Source: Candidatus Kaiserbacteria bacterium (GTDB lineage: Bacteria; Patescibacteriota; Minisyncoccia; Phycocordibacterales; UBA2100). From it: a stretch of 64,000 nucleotides of DNA. Shown piece by piece: positions 37,220 through 54,834 of this stretch. The stretch covers positions 89,582-153,581 of the forward strand of contig CAVYCR010000005.1 in assembly GCA_963767115.1 (NCBI GenBank), written 5' to 3'. The position numbers were made by a program, and so were the translations under genes. The stretch's first letter is position 1, and each line of letters starts with the position of its first letter. Below the pieces are notes generated by a model. It made no database searches. It saw nothing but the letters and a program-made list of their open reading frames with translations, and had not been told where the DNA came from.

Positions 37220-37301
37220 CATAACCGGCGCTCAAAATAAGGCTCGGCATAGCACCGATAACAAGTACTGACTGCGGGGTGTTTGGTACGAGGTTGGAAC
37301 T
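37220..37301 (-). repeat. att-like scar: copy of the tRNA-Ser 3' flank plus a degenerate tRNA 3'-like motif
   Basis: cataaccggcgctcaaaataaggctcggcatagcaccgataacaagtact compared with 54692-54746, about 85-90% identical by eye. It is followed by gtgtttggtacgaggttggaact. Confidence 0.65.
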
Positions 37302-37304
37302 AGT

Positions 37305-37835
37305 TTAGGTTAAAAAACCCTTATTTCTACCGTCATCAACAATTTTATCCAACTCTTTTAAGTATTCTTCACATATAGAGAATATGTCTTCGTCACCCTG
37401 CCAGTCACTAAAAGTATATTTACTTGAAATAATCCCGTTATCGATAGCACTTTGGAATGGTTGAAATTTGCCGATCGACTGCCCTTTTATATTTCCATCC
37501 TTATCTTTGTGTACCATTGATACAGAATCGCTAATATGTATAGTTTCTGATAGCATCAATGAAATATCGCGTTTAAACTCAAGAGGTTCAGTGTGAATAT
37601 TGAAATCTCTTTTGTCTTTCAAAAAATCTACTACCTTGTTGTTTGTCACTTGGTTGTCATACCATCTTTTGCCATCATCTTTAGACTCAGCTTCTTTTAA
37701 AGCATATTGTAAAACCGATCGAGAAGATGATAAAAAAGCACTTAGATTAAATTTAAAACCTTCTCTATTTTCTTTCTCTTTTACCATCTGAGAGTAAAAG
37801 TATTTTGCTTCAAGAAGCTTATCTATTTCATTCAT
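37305..37835 (-). CDS. hypothetical protein (low GC cassette gene 1)
   Basis: ORF track. AT-rich codon usage unlike the flanks. No domain recognised. Confidence 0.6.
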   Translation of the reverse strand: MNEIDKLLEAKYFYSQMVKEKENREGFKFNLSAFLSSSRSVLQYALKEAESKDDGKRWYDNQVTNNKVVDFLKDKRDFNIHTEPLEFKRDISLMLSETIHISDSVSMVHKDKDGNIKGQSIGKFQPFQSAIDNGIISSKYTFSDWQGDEDIFSICEEYLKELDKIVDDGRNKGFLT

Positions 37836-37848
37836 GCTCTTTACGGAC

Positions 37849-37873
37849 GTGTATTTGGTACGAGGTTGAAACT
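37849..37873 (-). repeat. second copy of the 23-25 nt tRNA-3'-like motif
   Basis: gtgtatttggtacgaggttgaaact compared with 37279-37301 gtgtttggtacgaggttggaact. Confidence 0.6.
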
Positions 37874-37904
37874 CTCTTAGGATAGAAGAACTTAATTTAG
37901 TTGC

Positions 37905-39131
37905 CTATTCTCGCGCCTTATATATTTCGAGGAAAAGCTGCGATAGTTCATTGATACCCGAGGTCTGGATACCTTGCCCCTTAAAAGAAACTGGACATCC
38001 TCTTCCTCTGGAAGGAAGTCGATCAAGCTCTTGATCTTGAGCTTCTTTAATTTCACCCGTTGAGAGTGCTTGCTTTATTTTCTGCATCTCATCAAGAATA
38101 TGAGGATTAAGAATAAGCTTGCCTTGTGCATCTTTTTGTACAAGTTCGGAAAGATATTTTCCCATCAAAGAGAAAGGGCCGATATAGCCTGGTGGAGCAA
38201 GATATCCGAGCTGATTTGGCAATTCAGCCTTTATTAAATCCTCGATAAACTTTTCTGAATCATCGTAGCCATCTTTTTTCTCTGACGAGAGTTGAGCGAC
38301 AGCTTGACCCAAAGTAACTATACCTTCTTGTAATGCCTTTAGCGCAGCCATACTCATATCATTGAGTAGGCGGAGGTCCTCTTCTCCGCGAGCAGTTTTT
38401 GCAAAAATATCTTTATGTGCTTCAACTAGCTGCGCAGATTTTTCTTCTAGAACGGAGGTGCTCTTGAGCATAATTTCGACTGTTTCGTAAATCTTCTTTG
38501 CTACAGTTGGTCCATATTCGCCAACAGGAATAACAACGAATGGCGGGAGCATTTTACTATTTTCTTTTGACCACGACTTGCCAAACAAAATCTGTGGGGC
38601 ATTTTTTACTTTAAATTTTTTATCCCATATTTCCTGCTCGTTGTTGAGATGCCCGGCATTATGCTCGGCAAATGCTGCGACCTGAGCGAAAAGTGGACTT
38701 ACGGATTCTGAATTAAAGCCCTTTTTCATTTCTTCAATAATTACTTCGATATGATTCTCAAAATGTATTTCACTCATCGGAGAATCTTTACGATTGGTTC
38801 GTCTTAAAAATTCCTTATATCCAATCCCTCCAATCTCTTGATTTCTTAGTAATGACGGTAATTCATTCATCCCAAAACCTAAGAAGTCCATACAGCTTGT
38901 CAAAGAGGAATAATTTGGACTCATTTCCGGTTTATATTCTTCAAGTTCCAGAAATTCGGGATTTGGTTTTGAAACTCCATTCTCGCGCACGGAGGAAACA
39001 TAGTCGCCAATGAATGGCGTAAGAACATTTCGCAAAACTCGCAAATGTTCTACCGCCTCTTTCTTATCAGGAGCCTTCTCGTCATTTTTAGGATGATCGA
39101 CTTCTCTTGCCGACAGTTTTTCTAGTCCCAT
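37905..39131 (-). CDS. hypothetical protein (low GC cassette gene 2)
   Basis: ORF track, 408 aa. No domain recognised. Confidence 0.6.
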   Translation of the reverse strand: MGLEKLSAREVDHPKNDEKAPDKKEAVEHLRVLRNVLTPFIGDYVSSVRENGVSKPNPEFLELEEYKPEMSPNYSSLTSCMDFLGFGMNELPSLLRNQEIGGIGYKEFLRRTNRKDSPMSEIHFENHIEVIIEEMKKGFNSESVSPLFAQVAAFAEHNAGHLNNEQEIWDKKFKVKNAPQILFGKSWSKENSKMLPPFVVIPVGEYGPTVAKKIYETVEIMLKSTSVLEEKSAQLVEAHKDIFAKTARGEEDLRLLNDMSMAALKALQEGIVTLGQAVAQLSSEKKDGYDDSEKFIEDLIKAELPNQLGYLAPPGYIGPFSLMGKYLSELVQKDAQGKLILNPHILDEMQKIKQALSTGEIKEAQDQELDRLPSRGRGCPVSFKGQGIQTSGINELSQLFLEIYKARE

Positions 39132-39260
39132 GTTCCTGATTGTATCAGATATCCCTTATCACTGGGATACCTCTTTACACTTGATATTCAACAGTGCTTA
39201 ATATGTCCTAATGTCTCTCAAAACCCACTACGGGGGCAGTCGTCTAACAGCTACAGACAA

Positions 39261-39317
39261 GGGCTCGACATAGGTCCGATACAAAATACTACGGGCGGGC
39301 ATCCGACGTTTCGAACT
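39261..39317 (-). repeat. pseudo-tRNA-Ser 3' fragment plus flank copy (att scar)
   Basis: The minus strand reads GTTCGAA-N11-CCGCCCGTAGTA. It has the same length and ends as the tRNA T-loop-to-3'-end plus flank (GTTCGAATCCCTGCCTCTCCGCCCGTAGTA). Confidence 0.7.
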
Positions 39318-39785
39318 TTCTACATCAGGCCCCACAAGGGTATTTTGACGATAAATCCTGATCAAAACCGAGGTGTCAGCATAGGGATGCGCAATCAGCG
39401 AAATCCCCACAAATCCCTTTTTTGACGACTTTGCATAGTGATCGTGATCGGCAAAAAAGCGAGCTTTATAGGGAAAAACGATCAAATTCAGAGACCAGAC
39501 TCATTTTCAAGATAGGGATTTCGTCTGTTGCGGTGTGGTCGTTTATTTCGGCCTCTGTTGGGTGTACAATAAATCCACCATTGACCACTAACAGACCCCG
39601 TTAGGGGTCTTTGGCATTTATAGCCGGTTCGATTTGGCACCGCCCGCCATCGGCGATATGGGTTAATTAACTAATGAGTGCTAGAACAGCACGCGATCCG
39701 GAAACACGACCGACAGCTGCGCCATGATCCCTGACCAGTTGCACACAGTAAAACTTCTGCTCGATGTGATATCCGTGCCAAGATA

Positions 39786-42700
39786 TCAATTTGACAGATG
39801 AGTTCCGCACAGATCGATTTCTTTCATGACATCTATAGTACCTTTGAGCGAGACAACCATCTTCTCGTAGTTCTCGAATTCAGCGGTGGTTAGCTTCTGC
39901 CCCTTACGATCCTTGAGATATTTTTGTGCGGGTTGGTATCCGCCGATATAAAACTCCCACACATCTTTTGGCACACCGTCCCAATACTGCGAGGCATTGA
40001 TATAGACGCGACCGTCTGAATAACTTATCTTGTCGACAATGTCCGACGATGCAATAGGAAATGTCGTGATCGGTGTCTCGACGAGAGGGTCAGTCAACAG
40101 ATGCATCCCTCGCAACTTCCTGCCGAGCGGCACGAGCCGCCAAAACTTTTCTTTATCTTTCGGATAGGGCACGCGCGGAAAATCACTCTTCAAGAACTCG
40201 GCATACGTTGCTCGATATGACGGAGAGTGCAGCATTGCATATACATAATCAAAAATGTCTTCCGGCCTCGTCGGACCCACAGTAAGTTCTATTTTCAGAA
40301 CAATCATTGGATCGAGATTCGGCTTCTTCTCGCCCTTTTTGTAGAGATACAGAGGGGATATATAATTTGTCTCTTTAATCGATACCCGGCGGGCGTCGGA
40401 AATCTTATCGGTCAAAAATATGTCAGCAAAATCGCGAGACCCCTCAATATGCTTATTTGATACAAGTCCGACATTATCACCATCTAGGAAATCATGCATT
40501 ACACTTCTTCGTGAACGCTCAATAAAATCATCGCTGTAGTAAATATATTTTTGATCAAACGGTCGATACGATATTGGTACGATATTGTGCGCATCAAATG
40601 TATGCTTCTGTGCGTTCACTATTTTCCATTTCTGATTTTCACCGAGCGCATATTTGCGTACCGCTTCGTTTGGAGAAATCATAAGAAAATCTTCTATCCG
40701 CTTGGCGAGTACGTCTTTAGATTGATCGATTACGAATGCATCGCGCGAGGTAACGATGCCGACCGTGTTTATTGGGAATAATTCTGCAACAGAAAATCCC
40801 TGCAAATAATCGCTCTTGCCCTCACCTTCCACCTTCCAAGTATCAGCGTTCTCCGGAAGTTCGTTCCAAACAATCGTATCAACCGTTCCCATCGTGAGTG
40901 CTTCGAATTTCTCTGAGCGCAAACCAAACAGATCAGCTTTGAAAATCGTTGCGAGCGGCTTCCTTTTTTTCTTGTCGCCGAGCCGTTTCTTGATGCCAAA
41001 AAATATCGAGACACCCGTCTTGATGTCGAAGACATTTTCGTCTTTTCCGCCGTCCTGTGTCGTCTCTTTCTTGTTGCTGTTGCCGTGCAAGTCGAGCACA
41101 TAGATCGCATCGAAGGTGTCGCGCAAGTGCCAACGCATCCCGCGGAATGTTGGGTTGTCGATGTAGCCGTGCGAGGTGATCATGCCAACAATTCCCTCGC
41201 CATTTTTCTCGATCATTGTTTCGGCGAAGCGGATGAACTTTACATAATCATCGTTGATCCATTTGCTGTTTTTCTCTTTCAACTTTTCTTTGCCACCCGG
41301 TTCGACCTTGTATGCATCGTTAGCCGTATAGTGAGGATTCATAGATTCGCCTGAGTACGGCGGATTGCCCATCACGACCATGATCGGATACTCGCGTTTG
41401 ACACGCGAGGCAAGGCGGCTTTCCTCGGCAATACTCTCAACCGCACCGAAGAGACTATGGATGAGCGGGATGTCGTGCGCTTCGTCAAGCGTGTTGGTGA
41501 GATAGACGCCGAGCCGATGCTTGAGATCGTTGAGGCCGGTGTGCTTCAGTGTCATGGCAATCTTGAGATGCGCAATCGTATAGCTCGCCATCATGAGTTC
41601 AAATCCATGCAGGCGCGGTAAGAGATCATCTTCTACATATGCGCCCCAACGACCCTGCGCGCCCTTCTGCGATTCGTGGATGTGCGTGATCGTTTCGTTG
41701 AGGAATGTCCCTGTACCCGTCGCCACGTCGAGAAGTTGTACGCGATGTGTGTCGATATCAACTCGCTTCTCTTTCCCTTTATCGAGCACCGTCGTCGAAC
41801 GCTCGATACGAGAGTTGTCAGCGATACCCTTGCTGATGCCAAACTCCCGTTTCAAGAGGTCGTCGATGCCGCGGATGATGAATCGCACCACCGGAAGCGG
41901 TGTATAGAAGACACCCATTTCCATCTTCTTCTGCGGATCATATTCACGCAGGAAATCTTCGTAGAAATGTATAACGGGGTCGGGCAGGTCGGCATTCACA
42001 TCTTTGTTCTTGAAATATTCCTCCATGAGCGCCTTCACATCGGCGTGCGTGAAGACTGTGCACAGTTCGTCGACAATGACGCTCAGACGTCGCGGGAAAG
42101 ATGTACCGGCAATATGATCGAAGAAACTTTGTAGAAACGGGTTGGTTTTGGGGATGAGACTTCGTGCTTCTTGGCGGTTGAATGTGTCGGCTGTCGGATC
42201 GTTGTAACGCGCGGCGAAGAGACCATACACGATTGTCTGCGCATACATGTCGGCGAAGTCGGTGGTCGTGAAAGTCGTGATGAGATTTTCCCGAATGAAA
42301 CGCATCATGCGTTCGAGCTCATCCTTTTCTTGGCTCGTGCTTTCAAGGAACGCGATCACGTTGTCACGTATGCGCTGCGCCTTGCCGCCCATGATGCGCG
42401 CGAGGTGTGCGCCGCTTTTGATCGGCTCTTTCTGCGACTCGACGAAGTCGTGCATGGTGCGCGCAAGCCGCTCGCCCTGGCCCGGGTGCGGGATGAACGT
42501 GCCACGCTTCACATCGACGGTTGCGAGGCGCAAATGTTCGTCGTATGGCTCGCCATTGCGATAAAATCTAAATTCGCAGTAGTCACTGATGATGAGGTTG
42601 GTGTAGCCGAAGTACCGGCTCGCCTGCGAGGACTTCTCGATCTTGTTGAGGTCTTCACCGACTTTCTTCACTTCAATATACAAAAGAGGAACATCGTCTT

Positions 42701-42914
42701 TCAGCACGATGAAATCGGGCTTGTTGCCGCTCTGTGCTTTGGGATCGTGTTGAATGTGAAAGTGCCCGCTCGCAGGAAAGACGGAGCTGAGATAATTCTG
42801 AAACGCGGTTCGGTATGACATCTCCGAGCTGCTCACGTCATGAAAATAGCTTTCGACCGACGAGAGATAGGTATTGACATTGGGACCATTGTTAATTGTT
42901 CGTTCTGAGGTCAT
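39786..42914 (-). CDS. type IIG/IIL (MmeI/Eco57I-like) restriction-modification enzyme: PD-ExK nuclease plus gamma N6-adenine methyltransferase plus TRD
   Basis: N-terminal KPDFIV..x..IEVKK, AdoMet motif LDVATGTGTF and catalytic VMGNPPYSGE. 1042 aa. Confidence 0.85.
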   Translation of the reverse strand: MTSERTINNGPNVNTYLSSVESYFHDVSSSEMSYRTAFQNYLSSVFPASGHFHIQHDPKAQSGNKPDFIVLKDDVPLLYIEVKKVGEDLNKIEKSSQASRYFGYTNLIISDYCEFRFYRNGEPYDEHLRLATVDVKRGTFIPHPGQGERLARTMHDFVESQKEPIKSGAHLARIMGGKAQRIRDNVIAFLESTSQEKDELERMMRFIRENLITTFTTTDFADMYAQTIVYGLFAARYNDPTADTFNRQEARSLIPKTNPFLQSFFDHIAGTSFPRRLSVIVDELCTVFTHADVKALMEEYFKNKDVNADLPDPVIHFYEDFLREYDPQKKMEMGVFYTPLPVVRFIIRGIDDLLKREFGISKGIADNSRIERSTTVLDKGKEKRVDIDTHRVQLLDVATGTGTFLNETITHIHESQKGAQGRWGAYVEDDLLPRLHGFELMMASYTIAHLKIAMTLKHTGLNDLKHRLGVYLTNTLDEAHDIPLIHSLFGAVESIAEESRLASRVKREYPIMVVMGNPPYSGESMNPHYTANDAYKVEPGGKEKLKEKNSKWINDDYVKFIRFAETMIEKNGEGIVGMITSHGYIDNPTFRGMRWHLRDTFDAIYVLDLHGNSNKKETTQDGGKDENVFDIKTGVSIFFGIKKRLGDKKKRKPLATIFKADLFGLRSEKFEALTMGTVDTIVWNELPENADTWKVEGEGKSDYLQGFSVAELFPINTVGIVTSRDAFVIDQSKDVLAKRIEDFLMISPNEAVRKYALGENQKWKIVNAQKHTFDAHNIVPISYRPFDQKYIYYSDDFIERSRRSVMHDFLDGDNVGLVSNKHIEGSRDFADIFLTDKISDARRVSIKETNYISPLYLYKKGEKKPNLDPMIVLKIELTVGPTRPEDIFDYVYAMLHSPSYRATYAEFLKSDFPRVPYPKDKEKFWRLVPLGRKLRGMHLLTDPLVETPITTFPIASSDIVDKISYSDGRVYINASQYWDGVPKDVWEFYIGGYQPAQKYLKDRKGQKLTTAEFENYEKMVVSLKGTIDVMKEIDLCGTHLSN

Positions 42915-43084
42915 GATGGATGCTTCTTACAGGGCTCAATTGTAGCATTTTTTAGCTTATTATGAAGAGGTTACTTACCAACTCCGAGAGATATCCGAAT
43001 ACTCGGGCCTCTTTCGGGTATATAAGCAATACAGCACAAAATCATCAATTGAAAAAGGGCTAAATGGGCGTACATTAAGGATAT

Positions 43085-44881
43085 ATGGGAGCACAAAAGA
43101 TGACCAAGAAAACAGGTGCGGCAACGCCCTCGCTGATCAAAGAGCAGCTGCTTCCCGAATTCGCTTTCGTCGGATACTGCAACAGCGATGACGCGAACAA
43201 ATACACGTCGAGAGCTAAGACCATCGATATCCAGTTCGTACGCGCCGCGCGAGATGAGGGTCTGCTCATACCCCTTTATTCGGCAGAAGGGCCCGTACGC
43301 AAGCCGGATGGGAGCGTCAATAACGAGATCGTCGATTACTATAGCCCGCTTCAATTTTTCATAGTCACTCAGCTGCGCAAGAATATCGTTCTGAATGGCA
43401 GATTGTGGGACCCTGAGACTGTCGAGTGGTACCCAGAGAAGCCGATGGAGGAACGACCGCGATTTATTTCATGGGGAGGAGGATTTTCATTCTCACCAAG
43501 GGATGTCGGCGATCCGGCACGCAAAAAAAGTGACGACGTCCTGTTCAACGCGTATTTATTCACGGCGACATTCGATGCCCTTCTCCGCTTTATCCATGCA
43601 ACACCATTGAAAGACAAGTACAAAATGCCGATGGACGAAAGTGATATGTTCGAGAGTGTTGCGACATTCAATCATGATCTGACGGCAGTCGTTTCGATTC
43701 CTGATGAATTAAAGCAGTATCGGCTCGATGCGAAGAAACTTAATTTCCTGAGGGCACATATCGCTCAGGCTGCGGCAGTTATTGACCCCCTCGAACTCTG
43801 GTATTACTACATCGACCGGCACCCGAATTCAAAGAAGAGCTTCCTCAAGGGCGACGCGCGAGTCGCGCAAAAGCTCTACAAAATCTACAATCTCATTACC
43901 GACGTCTGGCAACGAGTGACAGACGAGGAATCCAAACCACTTCTCGAACTCGTCGCAGGAGAAATCGGCAGTGGATATCTCACTCCACGAACGGAGTATT
44001 TGCATGGCATGGATGTTCAGGCAATGCGGCATAGTATCAATGGCTTTACTGTATGGAGTCGTATTCGAGGTAACGGTAAATATGTAACGGCGCAAATCCG
44101 TGAAGCGCTCGCCAAGGCTGTGACCGATTTAGACGACTTCGAAAAGCGATATGGCGATCGCAATTACGGCGGCAACTATCGTATACGAGAAGATCACGGG
44201 GTACGGTACGATCAGCTCGACAATGTCTCAAAGGCACGTTTTGACCAATGGCGTCTGCAACGTCACGATGCGGAAGAATGGGAGACAATCGAAGACGTTA
44301 TCGACTATCGCATCCATGAGATACAACGTGCATTGTCGACGGCGTACCATGCTGTCGGTTCACAACTACGTAACATCACCGCTGAGGCATGGGATATGCC
44401 GAAGCATTTCAATCATACATTTTGGATGCAACACCCCGTAATGTCTCAGGAAGAGCGAATGAAAGTGTTCCAAAAGGAGTCAAAGCGACTTACCGCTCAT
44501 GCGCGCGCCTGTCAGGAAAAAGAGCGCGAATTCTGGGGAGCTGTCTCATCAACGCGACTCGCGTTTTGTAAGATCTGCCGCAAACGGCCGATCCAGCTAC
44601 ACGCCGACACACGCAGTTTTGACTCACAGCCATCGATTTGCGATACGTGCGTGAAGGAAAAGAAGACGTATCCCGATACTACAAAAGGCGCGGAGTGGCT
44701 ATGTGATTCCTGTGGTCACGTCATTTACAAATTCGTTCATGGAAATACGTTAAGCGCACGCACACAGACCGGCACAGCAGTCGTGATTGAATTGAAATAT
44801 GGGAACCTCTTAGTCGAAGCGACGTGTCCAAAATGTAAAAATACCTTTGAGAAATCAATCGAATTCGGGTGGCTACCATGA
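43085..44881 (+). CDS. hypothetical 598-aa protein with C-terminal zinc ribbons
   Basis: CKICRK..CDTC and CDSCGH..CPKC pairs. Divergent from the R-M gene. Confidence 0.6.
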   Translation: MGAQKMTKKTGAATPSLIKEQLLPEFAFVGYCNSDDANKYTSRAKTIDIQFVRAARDEGLLIPLYSAEGPVRKPDGSVNNEIVDYYSPLQFFIVTQLRKNIVLNGRLWDPETVEWYPEKPMEERPRFISWGGGFSFSPRDVGDPARKKSDDVLFNAYLFTATFDALLRFIHATPLKDKYKMPMDESDMFESVATFNHDLTAVVSIPDELKQYRLDAKKLNFLRAHIAQAAAVIDPLELWYYYIDRHPNSKKSFLKGDARVAQKLYKIYNLITDVWQRVTDEESKPLLELVAGEIGSGYLTPRTEYLHGMDVQAMRHSINGFTVWSRIRGNGKYVTAQIREALAKAVTDLDDFEKRYGDRNYGGNYRIREDHGVRYDQLDNVSKARFDQWRLQRHDAEEWETIEDVIDYRIHEIQRALSTAYHAVGSQLRNITAEAWDMPKHFNHTFWMQHPVMSQEERMKVFQKESKRLTAHARACQEKEREFWGAVSSTRLAFCKICRKRPIQLHADTRSFDSQPSICDTCVKEKKTYPDTTKGAEWLCDSCGHVIYKFVHGNTLSARTQTGTAVVIELKYGNLLVEATCPKCKNTFEKSIEFGWLP

Positions 44882-44948
44882 TGCTCCTTGAAGGATGAGC
44901 TGCGGGATTATTCGGGTATTTCGAACCTCGATTTTATAAATCTATACT

Positions 44949-46302: not shown

Positions 46303-46328
46303 TAGAGGCGGGAGAAACTCGGTAGTTT

Positions 46329-46443: not shown

Positions 46444-46757
46444 GTATCCGAAGCCGTCTGTGCCACCACCCATCGAATACTCTACGGGCTGTATCTGATT
46501 CGGGGCATCGAAGCCCGCTGACCTCGGATACCAACTGACCAATGTTTTTGTGGAGACCGGCTACGCACACTTCCTTAAGCCGTGGCCGAAAGAATTCTAA
46601 CGAAGCCGTTTCCGAAATCTCCGCGCTCAAGCCTTAACCGGAGCGCCACCAGAAATTTCATATGTAGTATATCAAAAAGAAAATCCCCGGGCCCAGTGAC
46701 AAAGTGTCAAAGGGTCCGAGGATTCAGCTCGCCAAGGGCGAGCAAAGGTGCAGAGGG

Positions 46758-47417: not shown

Positions 47418-47593
47418 GGTGGCTGTTCCTTACAAGTGCTGCTGGTTCCTCGGCGATTCCAAGGTTTGCCTCAGCGGAAAATGCCCTCAATGTAAGGCGC
47501 TTTCAGCTGTGGCAAAGACCCTTTTTCAAAGAACAGAGACTGGTATTATAATACAAATAGAAACGATACGCAAGTACCCGCGTATTGGCGAAC

Positions 47594-47623
47594 TTGCATC
47601 ATAAATGTCCTGTGATGTATAAT
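47594..47623 (+). promoter_or_regulatory. candidate sigma-70 promoter (TTGCAT-18 nt-TATAAT)
   Basis: TTGCAT at 47594-47599 and TATAAT at 47618-47623. Confidence 0.4.
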
Positions 47624-47678
47624 TCAGGGACAATTCAATAGCTACCTACGCGGTAGCCGCGGTGGTCGAGAGAAAGGA

Positions 47679-47723
47679 CCGCCAACGACCTGAGCTTTTT
47701 TGCTCGGTTGTTGGCGGTTTTTT
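47679..47723 (+). terminator. terminator/attenuator hairpin with T6 tail upstream of the ParB-methylase gene
   Basis: ccgccaacgacctgagc / gctcggttgttggcgg stem followed by tttttt. Confidence 0.5.
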
Positions 47724-47775
47724 GCTGCCTTCAGCCCCACAAAGCTCAGGTCATTAGAAATGTAATGACCAATGC

Positions 47776-49065
47776 ATGAAAAAAGTAACAAAAACGAATC
47801 TCACATGGAAAACGGAAAAGCGCATCATCAGCCAGCTCATCGGCCACCCGAAGAACCCGCGCAAGATGAGCGAATCGCAGATGCGGAATCTTCAAGAAAG
47901 CCTCAAACGGTTCAATCTCGTCGAGATACCTGTAGTGGATACCGATAACACGATATTGGCTGGACACCAGCGGTTGAAAGCGATGCAGCTTGCCGGACGC
48001 GGCGAGGAAGAGATCGACGTGCGCGTACCCAATCGAAACCTCACCGAAACAGAGCGCGAGGAGTATCTACTGCGCAGCAACCAAAACACGGGAAGCTGGG
48101 ATGAGGAATTACTCAAAGCGATGGACATGGACATGCTTCTCGACGTCGGTTTCGGCGACGACGAGCTGCAAACCATCTTCGATGATATCGATGTCATCGA
48201 GGACGATTTCGACGTCGAAAAAGCGCTCAAGGAGACAAAGGTTGCTCGGGTAAAACCAGGCGAACTGTGGCAGCTCGGCAGCCACCGTCTCCTCGTGGGT
48301 GATTCAACCGATGCCGAACAGGTCAAAAAACTGATGGGTACCGACCGAGCGGATGTCGTGTACTGTGACAGCCCGTACAACATCGGACTCGATTACTCGA
48401 AAGGAATCAGTACCGGCGGCAAATACGAAGGTACCTACACAAGCGCGAAAGATTCCAAGAAAGACGTGGCCTTCGGCGCATTTCTCGATGCGAGCATGAA
48501 AGCCGCGCTCTCCGTGGCCAAGCCAAACGCACACCTATTATATTGGTGCGACGAGAAGTATATCTGGCTCCTGCAATCGCTGTATCGAGAAAATGGCATC
48601 GACAACAAACGCGTCTGCCTGTGGATCAAGAACAACTTCAACATGACTCCGCAGGTCGCATTCAACAAGGCATACGAGCCGTGCGTGTATGGAGTTATCG
48701 GCAAGCCATATCTCAACAGTGAACTGCGCAATACCAACGAGCTTCTGAACAAAGAGATCGGATCAGGTAATCAGGTGCACGAGGAAATCCTCGACATATT
48801 CAATCTCTGGCTGGCACGTAGGGATAACGCGCAATCATATCAGCACCCGACTCAAAAGCCGGTCGCGCTCAACGAGAAGCCACTGAAGCGTTGCAGTGCT
48901 CCGGGACACATCGTGCTCAGCGGCTTTGCCGGTAGTGGAAGCGATCTCATCGCATGCGAACAGCTCAATCGCAAGTGGCGGGGTGTCGAGATCGATCCGA
49001 TCTTCGCCACCGTCTGCATCGACCGGTGGGAGTCCTTTACCAACCAACGCGCGACACTCATATGA
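47776..49065 (+). CDS. ParB-like nuclease domain fused to an N4/N6 DNA methyltransferase
   Basis: ParBc motif ..HPKNPRKM...L..SL..F.L...PVV......ILAGHQRL, then DSPYN, HPTQKP and FAGSGS methylase motifs. Confidence 0.85.
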   Translation: MKKVTKTNLTWKTEKRIISQLIGHPKNPRKMSESQMRNLQESLKRFNLVEIPVVDTDNTILAGHQRLKAMQLAGRGEEEIDVRVPNRNLTETEREEYLLRSNQNTGSWDEELLKAMDMDMLLDVGFGDDELQTIFDDIDVIEDDFDVEKALKETKVARVKPGELWQLGSHRLLVGDSTDAEQVKKLMGTDRADVVYCDSPYNIGLDYSKGISTGGKYEGTYTSAKDSKKDVAFGAFLDASMKAALSVAKPNAHLLYWCDEKYIWLLQSLYRENGIDNKRVCLWIKNNFNMTPQVAFNKAYEPCVYGVIGKPYLNSELRNTNELLNKEIGSGNQVHEEILDIFNLWLARRDNAQSYQHPTQKPVALNEKPLKRCSAPGHIVLSGFAGSGSDLIACEQLNRKWRGVEIDPIFATVCIDRWESFTNQRATLI

Positions 49066-49811
49066 GCGTCGAGCAAGGAGATATCTTCTCCGTCGGTGAG
49101 CACATCATCGCGTGCGGCGATTCGCTCGATGCGACATTCGTGAGTAAGGTCATTGGAGACAAAAAGATCAGATGCATTCTCGTTGATCCCCCGTACGCCG
49201 TCTCCTACGTCGAGGGCAAGCGAGATTTCAACAAGCTGGGCGTGAATACGGACAAAGCGATCATCGGCGATCAGCTGCAATCCGACGAGGAATACGCTCG
49301 CTTCACGGGAGCGTGGCTCGAGGCGGTAAAGCCGCACCTAGAGCCGTACAATGCCTGCTACATCTTCAACAGCGATCTTATGTACCCTGCGCTGCGCCAA
49401 GGCATGAAGGATGCCGGGTTCTATTACTCCCAAGGTCTGATATGGATCAAGAATACGGTTGTCCTCGGCAGGAAAGATTATCTCCCCATGCACGAGCTCA
49501 TCGCGTACGGCTGGTGCGGCAAACACAAGATGGAACGCAGCAAAGCAAAAAGCATACTCTTCCACCCAAAACCAGCTGCATCGAAACTTCATCCCACACA
49601 GAAACCCATCGGACTCCTGCGTAAATTGATACCGAATTCGACGCGCCTGAGAGACTACGTGTATGACCCCTTCTTAGGCAGCGGGAGTACCGCTGTCGCC
49701 TGCGAGCACCTCGGCCGAAGGTGTGTCGGGATAGAAATTGATCCTGCGTACGCGGGAATTGCAATAGCGCGTATGGAGAAGCTCACCGGACTTGTCGCGC
49801 GAAAACTATGA
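49062..49811 (+). CDS. N4/N6 DNA methyltransferase (beta class)
   Basis: VDPPYA, HPTQKP and DPFLGSGST motifs. ATGA overlap with the upstream gene. Confidence 0.85.
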   Translation: MSVEQGDIFSVGEHIIACGDSLDATFVSKVIGDKKIRCILVDPPYAVSYVEGKRDFNKLGVNTDKAIIGDQLQSDEEYARFTGAWLEAVKPHLEPYNACYIFNSDLMYPALRQGMKDAGFYYSQGLIWIKNTVVLGRKDYLPMHELIAYGWCGKHKMERSKAKSILFHPKPAASKLHPTQKPIGLLRKLIPNSTRLRDYVYDPFLGSGSTAVACEHLGRRCVGIEIDPAYAGIAIARMEKLTGLVARKL

Positions 49812-50191
49812 GCGACGCCGTACCACCACAAAACAGAGGACGTGGCGCGTACAAGGCACGTGAATTCGAGACGTATCTCAAATGGAGAGCGCTGCCGCCA
49901 AGCTACCGCGACATGCCGCGCCAGTCGCTCGAAAAGATGGGGTTTGATGAGAGCATGCAAGACCTGCTTGAGATCAAATCGCAAAAGGCATTTGCAGAGC
50001 GATACAGCGTTGATGAAAGCACGCTCACTGAATGGAACGTGAGGATCGACCGCGACGGACTGCTTGATGATACACGCGCATGGATGCGTTCGATGACCCC
50101 GCTCGTATTCGGATCATTACTCAAAAAGATTGTTAAAAATCCGCACTCAAGCGATGTACGGCTGTGGCTTGAGTACGGAGAAGGCATATAA
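49808..50191 (+). CDS. hypothetical protein (possibly HTH / small-terminase-like)
   Basis: ATGA overlap with the upstream gene. The similarity judgement is weak. Confidence 0.4.
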   Translation: MSDAVPPQNRGRGAYKAREFETYLKWRALPPSYRDMPRQSLEKMGFDESMQDLLEIKSQKAFAERYSVDESTLTEWNVRIDRDGLLDDTRAWMRSMTPLVFGSLLKKIVKNPHSSDVRLWLEYGEGI

Positions 50192-50203
50192 CCGCACATC
50201 AAT

Positions 50204-50413
50204 ATGGAACACGAATTACTCACCAAATCACTGACTCCCGCGGAAGTGACAATACTGCTTTCACAGGCCATGCACGACCTCAAGAATCGAAAGATTACCC
50301 TGCGGCAAGCGCTTGCTCTTTCCCGCGTGGCGACCGCATTGGTAAAAAGCATTGAGACGGCTGAACTCAAGGCACGCATCGAGCTTCTCGAGCAGACGCT
50401 CAAGAAACGATAA
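50204..50413 (+). CDS. small hypothetical coiled-coil protein
   Basis: ORF track. Confidence 0.4.
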   Translation: MEHELLTKSLTPAEVTILLSQAMHDLKNRKITLRQALALSRVATALVKSIETAELKARIELLEQTLKKR

Positions 50414-50417
50414 CATT

Positions 50418-51890
50418 ATGAAAGACCTCACCAAATTACTGAGTACCAACGCCTTGCGCCCGAAGCAGCGCATTCTGCTCTTAGTGCAAAACGATTGCGC
50501 GAAAGATACTGGCGGCGCTGACATCCTCACGCCCGCAGACAAGCACGCGATCAGCGAAGGATGGAGACCTGCCAATAATTACGAAGCGCAGGAATACAAC
50601 AAGTACAACAGTGGCTGGAATACGGCGCTACACGCGCGACTCGACGCGCAGACGACGTATCTCAATGCTGAGATTTCGCTGTATCGGTCACTCGCAATCA
50701 TGGGATACCTCGCCCATATCCGCACTGGCTCGAAAGAAAAGATACTCCATATTGACGAGAATGAGGCGCTTGAGTACCTGCTGCAACAGAGCGGTCTTCC
50801 ATATGACCGTACGGTCTATACGATGGCGTTCCAAAATCTCAGCGAATCAGAACGACAAGATATCCTTGCACTGTATCCCGATGCGGAAACCGAGACTGAA
50901 TACCTGACGCAAGAGGAATTGCTCGCGAACGCATTCGACAATTCTGCATCACTGAGTACCGAAGCGAAGCAGAAACTTGTGACGGCAATCGTCGACGATC
51001 TGCACAACAGGTATGCTGACGCGTTTGAAAAAGCGGGTCTCGAAAGTCACCAATGGTACTTTCAAGGGTACTTCGCAAGCATGCCGCACATGGCGATACT
51101 GGAAAAATGGGCGCAGTACGCAGGGATTTCTGCTGTCGATGATGACGCGCTGATACAAGAATTCCACACATCCACCAAGACCCGCCACGAAGATATACGG
51201 GCAGTACTTCGCCGCACGGTGCTGCGATGGCTTGATGAGGGGCTTTTTGTAGATGAATACGAACCCCTCTGTATGAGTTCGCATAAGAACACTTGCAACG
51301 ATGCAACAACGAAACATCCTCACAAGGAAGTTTTCAGTGCATGGATGCGAGCAAAGAATGACGCGACTGAAGCGATGCAAAAACTCATCACAGCAGGCCA
51401 CCTTACGCTTGAAGACAGACCTCATTCAATATGGGGAATGTCGGAGATTGTACGGACACTCACCGGCGAGAGTATTTACTACTGCCCGAGCGATCTTCCG
51501 TTCGTGAACGAGTACAAGGCGCAGATCGATGCACTGCGTCCGACCGGCGCATTCCTCGTCTTCCTGCACCGACAGAGCTTCTTGCGAGAATACGCGGCGC
51601 TCCTCGCATTCCAGGACATGTTCACGCGACTATCGCGTATCTATGAAGTAGACGTGGGGCGACGCATCAATACATATATCGATGATCTCGAAAACAGCGT
51701 CAGACTGCTCAATAGTCAGGTCCGGATCGCGGTGGAGAACAACATAGACGCGCTACGTGAGAATCATACGTTCATACTCGACATGACGGATACGGTAGAG
51801 ATTTCACTCTGTGATATAGAGCCGAGTACCGGAGAAACCGAGACGCACTACCAGACCGAATTTGCTCGCCTTTTCGAGGCTGAATGGTGA
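50418..51890 (+). CDS. hypothetical 490-aa protein
   Basis: ORF with an internal ATG at 50418 (MKDLTKLL..). Confidence 0.55.
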   Translation: MKDLTKLLSTNALRPKQRILLLVQNDCAKDTGGADILTPADKHAISEGWRPANNYEAQEYNKYNSGWNTALHARLDAQTTYLNAEISLYRSLAIMGYLAHIRTGSKEKILHIDENEALEYLLQQSGLPYDRTVYTMAFQNLSESERQDILALYPDAETETEYLTQEELLANAFDNSASLSTEAKQKLVTAIVDDLHNRYADAFEKAGLESHQWYFQGYFASMPHMAILEKWAQYAGISAVDDDALIQEFHTSTKTRHEDIRAVLRRTVLRWLDEGLFVDEYEPLCMSSHKNTCNDATTKHPHKEVFSAWMRAKNDATEAMQKLITAGHLTLEDRPHSIWGMSEIVRTLTGESIYYCPSDLPFVNEYKAQIDALRPTGAFLVFLHRQSFLREYAALLAFQDMFTRLSRIYEVDVGRRINTYIDDLENSVRLLNSQVRIAVENNIDALRENHTFILDMTDTVEISLCDIEPSTGETETHYQTEFARLFEAEW

Positions 51891-51973
51891 AATAGTTACC
51901 TCCTTGTATTCAATAGACTTGTGGCGAGGGTTGCGGCATTGCTTGTGATGTAGCAGCTAAATACCACAAGCAT

Positions 51974-53305
51974 ATGGATCAAATCATCGAGCGACCATTC
52001 CCCGGAGGACAGATCGGGAGACCGGAACTGAAGATCGTTCCGCTCAAGTTTTGCCTCTACGCTCGCAAGAGCACCGAGAGCGAAGAACGGCAAGTGCTCT
52101 CCATCGACTCGCAGATCAAGGAGATGCTCCAGCTGGCTGAGCGCGAAGGATTGGAGATTGTCGCGATGAAGCGCGAGAGCCACTCAGCCAAAGAAGCAGG
52201 ACAGCGTCCCGTCTTCAACGAGATTGTCGAAGAAATGAAAACGGGAAAGTTCAACGCGATTCTCACGTGGGCACCGGATCGCATCTCACGCAACGCTGGC
52301 GACCTTGGGAAAGTCATCGACCTCATGGACGCCGGAGTGCTGATGGAGATCCGCACGTATAGTCAGTCGTTCCGTAATAACCCGAACGAGAAGTTTCTCC
52401 TGATGATTCTGGGGAGTCAGGCAAAACTCGAGAACGACAATCGCGGCGTAAACGTAAAGCGAGGACTTAGAACGCGCTGCGAGATGGGACTGCGGCCCGG
52501 AAGCACGTTGACCGGATATCTCAACGAACGGCGAATGGACCGGAAGTGCGAGGTCATCATCGATCCGGATCGCGGGCCGGTGATACGGAAGATGTTCGAG
52601 AAAGTCGGTTATGAAAAGTGGTCAGGGCCGCGATTGTATCATTGGCTCCGGTTCGAACTGAACTTTCAGACGCAAGGCAAGAAACCGCTCTCACTCGGCA
52701 ACATGTACCGCATTCTTTCCAACCCCTTCTACCATGGCATATTTGAGTATCCACGAAAGAGCGGCAACTGGTATCAGGGCAAGCACGAACCGTTGATATC
52801 CAAGGAATTATTCGAAAAGGTACAGGCGCAGCTCAAGCGAGACAACATACAGCGCGAATCGCATGAGTTCGCCTTCACGAAACTCATGACCTGCGGCAAG
52901 TGCGGATCGTGCATCAGTGCCGAGGAAAAGTACAAGCAGCGCAAGGATGGCACGACCGCACGATACGTCTACTACGGTTGTGGGCGTACGCGTGACAAAC
53001 AGTGCAAAGGCAATACGTATCTGCGAGAGGAGGAACTCGTAGAGCAACTGCTCAAGATCATCGACCAGATCGACATCAACCAGATCAACGTGCAAATGAA
53101 ATTCGAGGACGAATTGAAACGGCACAACAAATTCCAGCGCACGGTACTTGGTCTCTCAAATCCGAGCGCTACGCATGAGGAGATCAATATCAGAACATAT
53201 GCAAAATACATCCTGAAGGAAGGTACGAACGAGGAGAAACGCGAGCTGATGGGGTGCTTTAAGTCGAACTTCAAAGTCAACAATGGGGCTGTGACGATCG
53301 AGTAA
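51974..53305 (+). CDS. large serine recombinase (resolvase N-domain, recombinase domain, zinc ribbon)
   Basis: ..YARKSTESEERQVLSIDSQ.. catalytic Ser region, ..W.PDRISRN.., and a CGKCGS..YYGC zinc ribbon. Confidence 0.9.
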   Translation: MDQIIERPFPGGQIGRPELKIVPLKFCLYARKSTESEERQVLSIDSQIKEMLQLAEREGLEIVAMKRESHSAKEAGQRPVFNEIVEEMKTGKFNAILTWAPDRISRNAGDLGKVIDLMDAGVLMEIRTYSQSFRNNPNEKFLLMILGSQAKLENDNRGVNVKRGLRTRCEMGLRPGSTLTGYLNERRMDRKCEVIIDPDRGPVIRKMFEKVGYEKWSGPRLYHWLRFELNFQTQGKKPLSLGNMYRILSNPFYHGIFEYPRKSGNWYQGKHEPLISKELFEKVQAQLKRDNIQRESHEFAFTKLMTCGKCGSCISAEEKYKQRKDGTTARYVYYGCGRTRDKQCKGNTYLREEELVEQLLKIIDQIDINQINVQMKFEDELKRHNKFQRTVLGLSNPSATHEEINIRTYAKYILKEGTNEEKRELMGCFKSNFKVNNGAVTIE

Positions 53306-53310
53306 AAACT

Positions 53311-54588
53311 TTATAGAATCTCGACTGACTTTCTTGCTTTCCGAATTTCATCTTTGATTGCTTCGATACTGACTTTTGACTCAAAATAATCCAGCAGTTC
53401 CAACGCTTTCTCTTTTGGTTTTTGTTGAGATAATTCGGCCCTGACCCGCTCATTCGTCTTAAATAAACGTGATATTTGTCTAATCTGATCAATACCTAGT
53501 TGCTCAACGAAATCATGTAGGATTGAAAAACACGCTGATCGTCCCCAATAATTTCCACACCAAACGGCGAGTATCTCTTGGTACACTTCTTCAAACGCGA
53601 CCGAGGGTACGTGGGGGCCGAACTGCGCAAGAGTCGTTGCCGCAACATCTTCCTCTTTCCAACCGTACGCAGTATCTTTAGCTCCTGCCAATTTTTTGGC
53701 AGCGCGTCGATAAAGCTGTGCACGTGCTGCATCTGGTATATATCGCACTCCCTTTAATTGAACCAGAAGATTTAAAATGCGATTACGAGCATTTTTACTC
53801 TGGTTTTCATCCCCAAGTTCAGCGCCAAATTTAAGAGAGTGGTATTTCATACCAACCGTCTTTCTTTGTTCTTCGCCAGCCTTCTCCCAAACTTCAGGGA
53901 ACAAATTGACCGCATTAGTAATTCCCGGCTCTTTATCTGAACAGACCATATCCAACATAAAGCCGAAGCAAATTCTCACATCCTGTGCGCGCAAAGCTTT
54001 GATCTCATCCCTTAAGAGTGATACATCGGCATCAGAAAGTGTCGAGTTTTTGACCGGGTCGAAAAGCCCTGAAACTGAGTGACCTGGATCTGGTAACGGC
54101 GTCTCAAAAAGATTTTTCTGCAACAAAAGCGCGAGGGCAAAAACATCTTCTGGCTCAACCTTATTTTCTGTGTCGTGTGCTGCTGATGCATGATTGCGCA
54201 TCCAATTTATCATCTCTAGTGATTTTCCTGCCTTCTTATTTAACAATCCGAGATTTGTCGCCCCGAATATCAAAACTAGATCATCTACGCCCTCCCACCG
54301 TTCAGAAAGCGAGCTTCCGTCTTTATCATATTTCTTCCGTCCCGATTCTTCCTGAACAACAGAGATCCATAAATCAACGCCATATGCTTCAACGCGCCTT
54401 TTTAAATTTCCCACGGCGGCATTCCAAATTCCAAGCAAGGCATACTCCCCAAATCCGAGGCGGTAAAGTTCAGCAGCCTTCGTTAACAATCGACGCTCAT
54501 CCTCAATCAGTACCGGAAATGAGTCGAGATGACCAGAGTCAAGGATCTCGGGAAGTTTTGTTTTTGCAATCTTTAAATTACTCACCAT
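53311..54588 (-). CDS. hypothetical 425-aa protein in the island cargo slot
   Basis: ORF track. No confident domain. Confidence 0.6.
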   Translation of the reverse strand: MVSNLKIAKTKLPEILDSGHLDSFPVLIEDERRLLTKAAELYRLGFGEYALLGIWNAAVGNLKRRVEAYGVDLWISVVQEESGRKKYDKDGSSLSERWEGVDDLVLIFGATNLGLLNKKAGKSLEMINWMRNHASAAHDTENKVEPEDVFALALLLQKNLFETPLPDPGHSVSGLFDPVKNSTLSDADVSLLRDEIKALRAQDVRICFGFMLDMVCSDKEPGITNAVNLFPEVWEKAGEEQRKTVGMKYHSLKFGAELGDENQSKNARNRILNLLVQLKGVRYIPDAARAQLYRRAAKKLAGAKDTAYGWKEEDVAATTLAQFGPHVPSVAFEEVYQEILAVWCGNYWGRSACFSILHDFVEQLGIDQIRQISRLFKTNERVRAELSQQKPKEKALELLDYFESKVSIEAIKDEIRKARKSVEIL

Positions 54589-54691
54589 TAGGCCACATGA
54601 TAGACCTTTACTGAGAATTAGGGAATGTCGCAGTAATAAATCAGAAAGTTCGAATCCCTGAACGGTCTCTAGATTTTCCAGAGATTCGTTA

Positions 54692-54746
54692 CATAACTGG
54701 CGCTCAAAATAGGACTCTGCATAGCACCGATAAAAAGTACTACGGG
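54692..54746 (-). repeat. tRNA-Ser 3' flank (reference copy of the att-like repeat)
   Basis: See the copies at 37220-37301 and 39261-39317. Confidence 0.65.
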
Positions 54747-54834
54747 CGGAGAGGCAGGGATTCGAACCCTGGGAACCCTTTAGAGGTTCAACACATTAGC
54801 AGTGTGCTCCATTCGACCGCTCTGGCACCTCTCC
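54747..54834 (-). tRNA. tRNA-Ser (anticodon GCU), class II with long variable arm
   Basis: Hand-folded: acceptor GGAGAGG/CCTCTCC, anticodon stem GCACA/TGTGT with loop CTGCTAA, T-arm CAGGG-TTCGAAT-CCCTG. 88 nt. Confidence 0.9.

Follow-up and report, generated by a model that had tools for sequence, protein, structure and literature searches.

A probable tandem array of small integrative elements with a large serine recombinase, downstream of tRNA-Ser in Candidatus Kaiserbacteria

The stretch analyzed here (hereafter, the window) comprises 64 kb of the Candidatus Kaiserbacteria contig CAVYCR010000005.1 and contains a single tRNA gene, tRNA-Ser(GCU), placed by ARAGORN at 54744-54835 on the minus strand, so that its 3′ end points toward lower coordinates. 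On this side of the intact tRNA, three junctions at 37274, 39295, and 54746, all on the plus strand, form a collinear series that delimits a remnant with a truncated recombinase gene (E1), a remnant of two genes (E2), and, next to the tRNA, an element with an intact large serine recombinase (LSR) gene (E3). The GC content is 0.385–0.55 within this region versus ~0.58–0.62 to the right of the tRNA, where core-like HlyD and AcrB genes follow; to the left of ~31 kb lie chromosomal genes for PilM, a D-Ala-D-Ala carboxypeptidase-family (penicillin-binding-type) protein, and DUF347. We interpret the region as a tandem array grown by accretion, in which three small integrative elements of a single LSR-mobilized family were inserted at the tRNA-Ser 3′ end, and we put the probability of this interpretation at roughly 75%. 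The differences between E1, E2, and E3 in GC content, cargo, and arm subtype were counted toward their being separate elements.

Four repeats underlie this division: (a) adjoins the tRNA, (b) and (c) lie at the other two junctions, and (d) lies inside E2. They are real and far above chance. A repeat finder recovered all of the pairs, 37220-37269 with 54692-54741 (90% identity), 39260-39316 with 54711-54767 (74%), and 37279-37326 with 37851-37898 (77%), which bears out a preliminary description of the same DNA that had listed four collinear copies at these positions. Local-alignment scores were compared with those of 30 dinucleotide shuffles on both strands. The flank of (a), 54692-54749, reaches 40 when aligned at (c) and 25 when aligned at (b), with the next real match at 12 and shuffle maxima of 13.4 ± 1.2 (highest 16), and the motif common to (c) and (d) scores 26 with shuffle maxima of 12.5 ± 1.2; formal alignment thus places the junction similarities above a background of ~13. 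The similarity of (a) and (c) spans ~100 nt (54645-54749 and 37173-37277), which the preliminary description had missed, and the recombinase gene is itself duplicated (34438-35347 and 52399-53305, repeat finder), a pair of which it had made no use. The 12-nt identity between (a) and (b) arises from the P arms, the element ends described below, which stand on the left of both junctions.

The intact recombinase of E3 carries the domains and the catalytic motif that define large serine recombinases, with Pfam matches to Resolvase (PF00239, 1.3e-19), Recombinase (PF07508, 9.5e-14), and the zinc ribbon (PF13408, 9.3e-07). It matches the phrog_95 integrase at 2.2e-59, and its best NCBIfam match is CcrB (E 7e-34), with 117 bits against a cut-off of 900. 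No Phage_integrase or tyrosine-recombinase domain was found among the ~27 open reading frames (ORFs) tested between 31.5 and 54.6 kb, in keeping with the earlier view that the serine recombinase is the integrase here.

Relatives of this LSR were collected at 114 loci (designated by L and a number), 34 in viral contigs with 45–72% identity and 80 in metagenomes with 62–84% identity; the metagenome scan confirmed at least 540 relatives. Downstream of the LSR, 84 loci had enough sequence to judge the tRNA. A minus-strand tRNA-Ser (GCU, UGA, GGA, CGA, and odd 'ACU' calls) is present in 46 of them, another tRNA (Asp, Glu, Gln, Trp, or Asn) in 9, mostly with more distant relatives, the flank motif (P arm) without a tRNA in 11, and neither in 18. 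A minus-strand tRNA accordingly follows the plus-strand LSR at 0.1–6 kb in 55/84 loci, and the distance from the LSR stop codon to the tRNA 3′ end is 114–6192 nt (median 1746; <200 nt in 11 cases and >800 nt in 43). The order LSR, variable slot, conserved flank, and tRNA is a property of the clade, and this clade-wide link explains why serine recombinases alone are found beside the tRNA, which had been a puzzle in the preliminary description. The array itself therefore contains a matching integrase, intact in E3, from a family that uses such sites elsewhere.

The ends of the elements can be read from five contigs with complete single elements of 3.9–14.3 kb (L058, L094, L086, L076, and L044). 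Their left junction consists of a terminator hairpin, GCGG, GCCACTC-GGG-TTAAGTA-CCC, ~20 nt, and TAAGGGTAT(T/C)TTAGCA; their right junction consists of the P arm, GCGG, and the tRNA. In single-copy relatives the two junctions have in common only GCGG or (T)GGCGG, with TGGCGG where CCA is encoded, that is, the very short identical core without long direct repeats that is expected of LSR elements. A terminator hairpin normally follows a tRNA gene, so the native target is the tRNA end together with its terminator, and a common core of only GCGG/TGGCGG, as a serine integrase leaves, means that no tRNA fragment is displaced. The left arms of the native sites (B arms) showed no common sequence on alignment. 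Two contigs from different metagenomes, L003 and L044, carry the same element with 100% identity over 10,757 nt and diverge exactly after GCGG, L003 continuing into tRNA-Ser and L044 into other DNA. GCGG is also the only block common to all junction types and, judging from the sequences, is probably the crossover region. Serine integrases cut with a 2-bp stagger at a central dinucleotide, and half-site geometry together with a recombination directionality factor sets the direction of the reaction; here the sequences narrow the probable cut to the 4 nt of GCGG, and no candidate directionality factor was identified. In the window the acceptor 3′ strand, T stem, and T loop of the tRNA read GCGG-AGAGGCAGGGA-TTCGAAC on the plus strand.

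With this core as reference, junction (a) is P3-GCGG-tRNA, junction (b) is P2-GCGG-P′, and junction (c) is P1-GCGG-P′, where P denotes the right and P′ the left arm of an element. In related loci the 40 nt adjacent to the tRNA have the consensus ..AaGG..ctcGGGTCacTCCGATAcTAAATTGTCttG, followed by the tRNA sequence GCGGAG, and the conserved form of the P arm is ...GGGTC-N4-CCGATA-N13, ending at GCGG. Such a flank stands beside tRNA-Ser in dozens of unrelated contigs. Since it travels with the LSR across hosts and isoacceptors and also occurs at junctions without a tRNA, it is the right attachment (att) arm of the element and not host DNA. The P2 arm at (b) matches the arm beside tRNA-Ser(UGA) in L038/L039 at 19/20 core positions.

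Some further features were noted in and around these flanks. A second type of tRNA-proximal flank in the clade reads GGTCGCGTAACAC...CACGTTC (L060 14913-14965; flanks of L057, L074, and L081). The P3 arm contains a T-arm-like sequence, GTTCGAATCCCTG at 54648-54660, identical to the T arm of the tRNA itself on the opposite strand. A T-arm-like GTTCGAATC, often with an inverted GATTCGAAC as a long hairpin, lies 54–104 nt inside the P end in 13/45 loci versus 23/405 control segments; sites of this kind are at 54648-54700 and 37176-37200 in the window and ~65–105 nt to the left of the tRNA in L004, L038, L043, and L045. The tRNA-Ser genes called by ARAGORN with an 'ACU' anticodon are at L004 15917-16004, L055 12468, L079 13776, L071 9394, L075 11432, and L093 12169; those in L004, L055, and L079 directly adjoin a P arm, and the first two of these are followed by a normal tRNA-Ser. 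The 'ACU' calls could represent hybrid tRNAs, tRNAs carried by the elements, or calling errors. In an independent assembly of the window's sample (L117, a Logan contig of run ERR11630394, and L002), breaks fall within the P1 arm at (c) and within the tRNA, which is consistent with graph branching at att junctions induced by repeats or heterogeneity.

The left arms are of two types. To the right of its core, (b) matches the canonical left ends of the single elements and also the P-flanked junctions L005 7319 and L051 15510, each of which is followed by the methylase module found in E3; 39299-54745 is therefore a complete element. The E3-type P′ arm, GCATCCGACG-TTTCGAAC...CCCCACAAGGGTATTTT, mirrors the tRNA acceptor, with GGG, a 7-nt loop, and CCC (consensus GCGG-N7-GGG-N7-CCC). 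The far-type P′ arm of (c) and (d) aligns with six other P-core-P′ junctions (L012, L072, L087, L098, L110, and L063) of the form GCGG/CCGG-TG-N14-TTCGAAC; at (c) it reads GG-TGTTTGGTACGAGG-TTGGAAC..., and junction (c) as a whole has the P-core-P′ layout of an attP. Repeat (d) has a degenerate core instead of GCGG and lacks a P arm on its left side. Both types hold a T-loop-like octamer, the E3 type at the spacing of the tRNA and the far type 5 nt further out. This likeness to the tRNA is a property of the element ends, being conserved along with sequence inside the elements, and does not derive from decayed tRNA. An offset of +5 is characteristic of attP half-sites of the phiC31/LI type, and it is seen only in the far-type arm. 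A universal +5-bp rule for P′ arms was considered and rejected: it holds for (c), (d), L012, L072, L087, L098, L110, and L063 and fails for the E3 type, so it was not used to assign half-site types.

Arms, core, and clade data therefore agree with the proposal of the preliminary description that the repeats are att-type junctions splitting the region into stacked elements beside tRNA-Ser. Its account of (b) as flank, GCGG, 11 nt, and TTCGAAC with the spacing of the tRNA was literally right. Its reading of the scars as degenerate or displaced tRNA-Ser 3′ fragments does not hold, as only the 4-nt GCGG is common with the tRNA through recombination and the rest consists of element arms.

Table 1. 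Features of the array and its attachment sites, with positions in the window.
Feature	Position	Strand	Remarks
tRNA-Ser(GCU)	54744-54835	-	B′ half of attachment site; ARAGORN and geometry of 55 related loci
Core GCGG of junction (a)	54746-54749	+	First 3′-trailer base, discriminator, last two acceptor bases
P3 arm, right end of E3	54645-54745	+	...GCATAGCACCGATA-N13 motif directly before core
Junction (b)	39255-39345	+	P2 arm 39255-39294 (GGCTCGACATAGGTCCGATAC), core 39295-39298, then E3 P′ arm
Junction (c)	37173-37326	+	P1 arm to 37273 (90% identical to P3), core 37274-37277, far-type P′ 37278-37326
Repeat (d)	37851-37898	+	Second far-type P′ copy, TGTATTTGGTACGAGG-TTGAAAC...
Element E1, decayed remnant	34391-37277		Truncated LSR, DRT2, P1 arm
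LSR gene without catalytic domain	34391-35347	+	Homology to full copy from ~34425, just past terminator
DRT2 defense reverse transcriptase	35369-36751	-	PADLOC 2.3e-121
Element E2, LSR-less two-gene remnant	37278-39294		Far-type P′, 176-aa gene, second P′ copy, 408-aa gene, P2 arm
176-aa gene	37305-37835	-	No family match
408-aa gene	37905-39131	-	No family match
Element E3, complete, ~15.4 kb	39299-54745		Both ends canonical; Pfam and PADLOC gene calls
Type IIG restriction–modification (R-M) enzyme	39786-42914	-	
Reverse transcriptase of diversity-generating retroelement (DGR)	44949-45989	-	
bAvd-like ORF	45922-46302	+	
DGR template repeat (TR)	46329-46446		
DGR variable repeat (VR)	46766-46883		At 3′ end of 219-aa minus-strand ORF
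Two DNA methylases	47776-49811		
Intact LSR, 443 aa	51974-53305	+	Resolvase, Recombinase, Zn_ribbon_recom domains; N-terminal YARKST catalytic motif
425-aa cargo protein, phrog_27609	53311-54588	-	

On this evidence, an element of the family consists of a left P′ arm that starts from GCGG and mimics the tRNA acceptor and T arm, core genes, the LSR, a variable cargo slot, often with defense genes, and the right P arm. Integration would take place by crossover within the 4-nt GCGG (discriminator and last acceptor bases), where the crossover dinucleotide would lie, so that almost no tRNA sequence would be duplicated and the P arm would supply a new trailer to the tRNA. The native left half-site, the B arm with the tRNA terminator, is not conserved, and the target appears to be set mainly by the tRNA half. 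This half is still there once a site is occupied (P arm and tRNA), so a newcomer could insert between the resident element and the tRNA; the variability of the B arms and the recurrence of arrays are our grounds for supposing such reuse, in which a P arm would be tolerated in place of a B arm. For the window, E1 would have arrived first (its LSR now truncated, with DRT2 as cargo), E2 second (LSR lost, two low-GC genes and P2 retained), and the complete E3 last, an order that fits the decay state of the three elements; E3 may still be mobile.

Arrays are also present in other contigs. Contig 3300000970_000154 contains, in order, a Type IIG gene, an LSR, cargo, a P arm, a 1.2-kb unit, a P-P′ junction, an element with methylase, reverse transcriptase, and LSR genes, a P arm, and the tRNA. 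Two elements are found in L051, a contig of 279 kb, and a 540-nt unit between two nearly identical P arms in L072. In L060 the second arm type is followed by a true 22-nt tRNA-Ser 3′ fragment at 14943, 2.1 kb to the left of the intact tRNA, which indicates that stacking of different sub-lineages can leave genuinely displaced tRNA fragments.

The two remnants differ in what they retain. The reverse transcriptase and truncated recombinase of E1 had been taken for a remnant in the preliminary description; we agree and regard the remnant as older. Compared over 34425-35347 and 52399-53305, the LSR copies of E1 and E3 are 54–78% identical in the first ~400 nt and 91–96% identical over most of the remaining ~500 nt (bins 34833-35233, with one further bin at 86% and one at 81%), and the similarity ends at the stop codon. 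This mosaic suggests a gene-conversion tract between the neighboring elements and weakens any dating. DRT2 systems carry a template non-coding RNA upstream of the reverse transcriptase; in E1, ~470 nt of non-coding DNA lie upstream of DRT2 on its strand, and Rfam 15 had no match there. Regular-expression and matrix searches for the left boundary of the whole array found no B-P′ junction in 30–35 kb, and the left part of E1 seems to have been replaced by unrelated DNA including BRO-N and GrpB genes. To the left of the truncated LSR, 31495-34327 encodes BRO-N, GrpB, and small uncharacterized proteins at a GC content below that of the chromosome, with a terminator at ~34380-34415.

E2 has a GC content of 0.385–0.40. 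Its 176-aa and 408-aa proteins gave no family match in Pfam, PADLOC, PHROG, and NCBIfam-type searches, and their genes are absent from all 114 LSR loci. Both arms are present in only one of the two short E2 units. A pair of ORFs of 407 and 176 aa in the slot of L031 has the sizes of the two E2 genes and was discarded, as it showed no sequence similarity to them.

Several points weigh against the interpretation as a tandem array. A position weight matrix for the P arm was built from the tRNA-adjacent flanks of 43 unrelated metagenomic loci, with the window left out, and its top three sites on either strand of the 64 kb are 39255 (b) at 15.4, 37234 (c) at 14.2, and 54706 (a) at 13.9, followed by a site at 10.3; individually, scores of 13.9–15.4 are within the range of the shuffle maxima (mean 12.8, maximum 16.7), and the ranking carries weight because all three sites are on the same strand and each is then followed by GCGG. 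In the E3 P′ arm, octamer and GCGG are as far apart as in the tRNA, and the +5 offset is confined to the far-type arm, which makes the half-site logic hard to read. Canonical LSRs do not recombine attP with attR, that is, they do not tolerate a P arm in place of a B arm. Repeat (d), without core and P arm, and the presence of two P′ copies leave the internal structure of E2 unexplained. Part of the similarity between E1 and E3 could stem from recombination between neighbors and not from two independent arrivals. Finally, scans for relatives with an empty or differently filled copy of the window's tRNA-Ser locus returned none: a scan of genome collections with the flanking HlyD protein gave one 43%-identical match in a metagenome-assembled genome labelled Saccharibacteria, with no tRNA beside it; searches for exact copies of the HlyD protein and of the LSR returned no match, or 1.8-kb and other short contigs from the same sample; and the right-end region of the array had no match in a phage collection. 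For this reason, we infer insertion at the window's own locus from the behavior of the family and not from synteny.

Apart from these sites, the matrix search pointed to a weak, inverted P-arm-like site at 34004-34041 on the minus strand, ~400 nt to the left of the start of LSR homology (score 10.3; 74% complementary to 54721-54743), which is probably due to chance.

Among other explanations, the one that survives best takes the conserved flank primarily as a replacement terminator of the tRNA, repeated through functional convergence, and not as a recombinase-binding arm. On the tRNA strand the arm does form a short, weak hairpin, TCGG...CCGA, followed by TTATTTT, 37258-37244 was flagged as terminator-like by a scan, and the native B arms are terminator hairpins. 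Yet it is the sequence that is kept, not only the pairing, with CCGATA fixed 13 nt from GCGG across tRNA-Ser isoacceptors and hosts, and the arm accompanies the LSR and is present where no tRNA stands. We therefore consider it unlikely that termination is its primary role; the two roles are mutually compatible, and with its weak hairpin and T run the P arm may also replace the tRNA terminator.

We think it very unlikely that the short units are integron-like cassettes, single genes without an LSR that carry a P′-type site at the gene 3′ end and are mobilized individually by the LSR acting in trans. Behind each of the 408-aa and 176-aa genes, read on the minus strand, stands a P′ motif, L072 and 3300000970_000154 also have short units (540 nt and 1.2 kb, respectively) bounded by att junctions, and the cargo beside P arms in relatives is often a defense gene. 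Against this, (d) has neither the GCGG core nor a P arm, the near-identical P arms of the L072 unit are what a deletion derivative of a duplicated element would show, and seven homologues of the 408-aa protein lie in unrelated, variable contexts without an LSR, a P arm, or a P′ arm. These homologues, together with the absence of the E2 genes from the 114 loci, led us to rate independently mobile single-gene cassettes as improbable. The likeness to a cassette array remarked on in the preliminary description is thus weak, the short units of the relatives looking like deletion derivatives.

That there was only one integration, with the 3′ part of the LSR gene and the P arm of E1 and E3 then arising as copies in place through internal duplication or unequal homologous recombination, appears highly improbable. 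The 91–96% identity of the LSR copies over 34833-35233 and the 90% identity of the P1 and P3 arms are what it would predict, but the 5′ part of the retained LSR segment is only 54–78% identical, a gradient better explained by a local gene-conversion tract. Moreover, the cargo between LSR and P arm is unrelated (DRT2 in E1, the 425-aa phrog_27609 protein in E3), the P2 arm and the P′ arm of (c)/(d) are of different subtypes, each matched by different foreign contigs, and the GC content of E2 is distinct.

Least probable of all is crossover inside the tRNA, as in islands of tyrosine integrases, with (b), (c), and (d) as displaced and decayed tRNA-Ser 3′ fragments: GCGG-N11-TTCGAAC at (b) keeps the tRNA spacing, the P′ consensus mirrors acceptor and T arm, and a genuine 22-nt tRNA fragment occurs in the related array at L060 14943, but in (b) 9/11 acceptor and T-stem bases differ from the tRNA while the flank matches at 12/13 and the heptamer at 7/7, a block pattern that does not fit neutral decay; the same left end and 30 nt beyond it are kept in eight contigs with unrelated left neighbors and so belong to the element; Rfam found no tRNA match at (b) (E ≤ 10) and the fold z-score of 0.38 is no better than that of shuffles; the strongest similarity of (a), (b), and (c) lies outside the tRNA; and the identical elements of L003 and L044 diverge right at GCGG. 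A pseudo-tRNA at (b), suggested by the 6-bp complement GCATCC/GGATGC ~86 nt apart, was rejected on the same Rfam and fold results. A loose search for tRNA-3′-like fragments gave 113 matches, mostly noise, among which only L060 14943, L072 13336, and (b) of the window stood out.

A bolder extension of the tandem-array interpretation may be put forward tentatively, and we regard it as rather doubtful. The attB of the clade would be set almost wholly by one half-site, the conserved tRNA-Ser acceptor and T arm that the left end of the element mimics; occupied sites, and perhaps left ends, would remain targets; and open-ended, integron-like defense arrays would result, in which LSR-less P′-cargo-P units, such as the 408-aa unit, would be mobilized in trans.

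By analogy, the nearest serine-recombinase precedent is that of the Dehalococcoides ssrA islands, with staphylococcal cassette chromosome (SCC) arrays also among the closest systems. In Dehalococcoides, tandem islands likewise lie downstream of one small-RNA gene with a tRNA-like 3′ end, their junctions are marked by a short repeat with an adjacent conserved motif, and an LSR (DsiB, of the CcrB family) serves as integrase; islands without an integration module were read as cis-mobilizable units gained by accretion (McMurdie et al. 2011, PMC3146451). They differ in their target (transfer-messenger RNA), an inferred T-loop crossover, and a 20-bp direct repeat, in contrast to tRNA-Ser and a 4-nt acceptor-end core here, in having DsiA as a further, small recombinase and an integration module of six genes, neither of which was seen in the window, and in their cargo of dehalogenase genes. 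Like the array in the window, SCC arrays (SCCmec and composite forms) consist of LSR-driven elements lined up in tandem at the 3′ end of a single conserved gene, in their case rlmH; the recombinases are CcrAB or CcrC, integration sites are repeated, and recombinase-less pseudo-elements occur. The LSR of the window is not a Ccr (117 versus 900 bits) and acts as a single recombinase instead of a CcrA/CcrB pair, and the target is a tRNA gene and not a protein gene. Neither the equivalog score nor an rlmH or ssrA target, which would place the array with SCC/Ccr or ssrA/DsiB, was found; the target is tRNA-Ser.

Tyrosine integrases are responsible for the accretion of integrative and conjugative elements (ICEs), integrative and mobilizable elements (IMEs), and cis-mobilizable elements (CIMEs) at the 3′ ends of tRNA and other genes, for example ICESt1/ICESt3 (PMC5704250), and tandem arrays are known (PMC7192596). 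There too, residents decay to integrase-less units that keep their att sites; those arrays have cores of 15–50 bp and a displaced gene fragment, as opposed to a serine recombinase, a 4-nt core, and no displaced tRNA fragment here. Neither of the marks of Islander-type tDNA islands, a tyrosine integrase and a displaced tRNA 3′ fragment at the distal end, was found.

The filamentous phage phiRSM uses a small, resolvase-like serine recombinase, and its attP/attB core TGGCGGAGAGGGT is the 3′ end of tRNA-Ser(UCG) in reverse orientation (PMC3816273). It thus shares with the window elements a serine-family recombinase and the same tRNA-Ser end and orientation; it differs in having no Recombinase or zinc-ribbon domains and a 13-nt common core, and no tandem arrays or cargo slot have been described. 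The serine integrases of phiC31, Bxb1, and A118/LI share with the LSR of the window the Resolvase, Recombinase, and zinc-ribbon domains, short att sites, and a minimal common core. An attP/attB offset has reportedly been described for the LI integrase (by Rutherford et al. in 2013). The far-type P′ arm, with its T-loop-like heptamer 5 nt further from the core than in the tRNA, would be parallel to it, unlike the E3-type arm with its tRNA-type spacing. The canonical enzymes differ further in that they insert into protein genes or intergenic DNA and recognize both half-sites of attB specifically, whereas the B half is unconstrained here. Integron arrays resemble the window in their small, often single-gene units, all in one orientation, each followed by a recombination-site-like repeat, beside a fixed platform. 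The window has no IntI tyrosine recombinase, attC hairpins, or attI/Pc platform, and the (c)/(d) motif is not an imperfect hairpin and aligns with linear P′ arms.

The targeting of tRNA genes by LSRs has rarely been reported. The authors of TIGER (2020) noted that use of a tRNA or tmRNA gene by serine integrases was previously unreported and predicted it in 14/297 cases (PMC7192596), another account termed such use not known and confined Islander to tyrosine integrases (PMC4383910), and the main text of the LSR survey by Durrant et al. does not mention tRNA. The stacking mechanism is broadly familiar, but the literature searched does not appear to describe an abundant clade of LSRs that is specific for the 3′ end of tRNA-Ser and has a 4-nt core, a tRNA-mimicking left arm, and a defense-rich slot.

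Textbook and database practice treats the targeting of tRNA genes as a property of tyrosine integrases. The clade described here consists of serine integrases, is abundant, and is linked to the tRNA-Ser 3′ end across isoacceptors, with a readable grammar of attP, attL, and attR. Programs that recognize islands by a tyrosine integrase and a displaced tRNA fragment would overlook such elements. An integrase that targets a nearly universal 20-nt tRNA segment could serve as a broad-host-range tool, and, if occupied sites do remain targetable, they would offer a simple route for the growth of defense islands. In the window itself, the scars have been resolved into a map of one complete element with an intact LSR and two remnants.

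The genes of E3 follow the order P′ arm, Type IIG R-M, a 598-aa protein, DGR, two methyltransferases (MTases), a 127-aa protein, a 512-aa protein, LSR, 425-aa cargo, and P arm; the MTase, 127-aa, 512-aa, reverse transcriptase, and LSR modules are common to relatives. The DGR at 44949-47417 is genuine: in a comparison of 46311-46460 with 48-46897, which includes ~19 nt of non-repeat flank on each side, 27/45 mismatches are of the A-to-N kind when the minus strand of the TR is read. The strand arrangement of the bAvd-like ORF relative to the DGR reverse transcriptase looks unusual.

Homologues with 49–66% amino acid identity to the Type IIG enzyme are encoded at L005 13-3111, L079 5635-8721, and L108 6754-9840 and in L098, L074, and L013. 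The gene lies 0.15–1.3 kb upstream of the LSR in L005, L079, L108, and L074 and ~4 kb upstream in L098 and L013; in the window, 9 kb separate the two genes and the Type IIG gene occupies the extreme left of E3, which may itself be rearranged or composite.

In relatives, the slot between LSR and P arm is a hotspot of defense genes: 6 of the 10 largest slot ORFs match PADLOC families, namely QatA, Type IIG R-M, PD-Lambda-5_A, a GajB-like helicase, Dsr1-like, and Type II MTase, with examples at L041 5427-7364, L071 6196-8892, L045 2506-3921, L076 10042-11967, L060 12295-14823, and L030 7948-10590. By position, the 425-aa (phrog_27609), 408-aa, and 176-aa proteins of the window are candidate defense genes.

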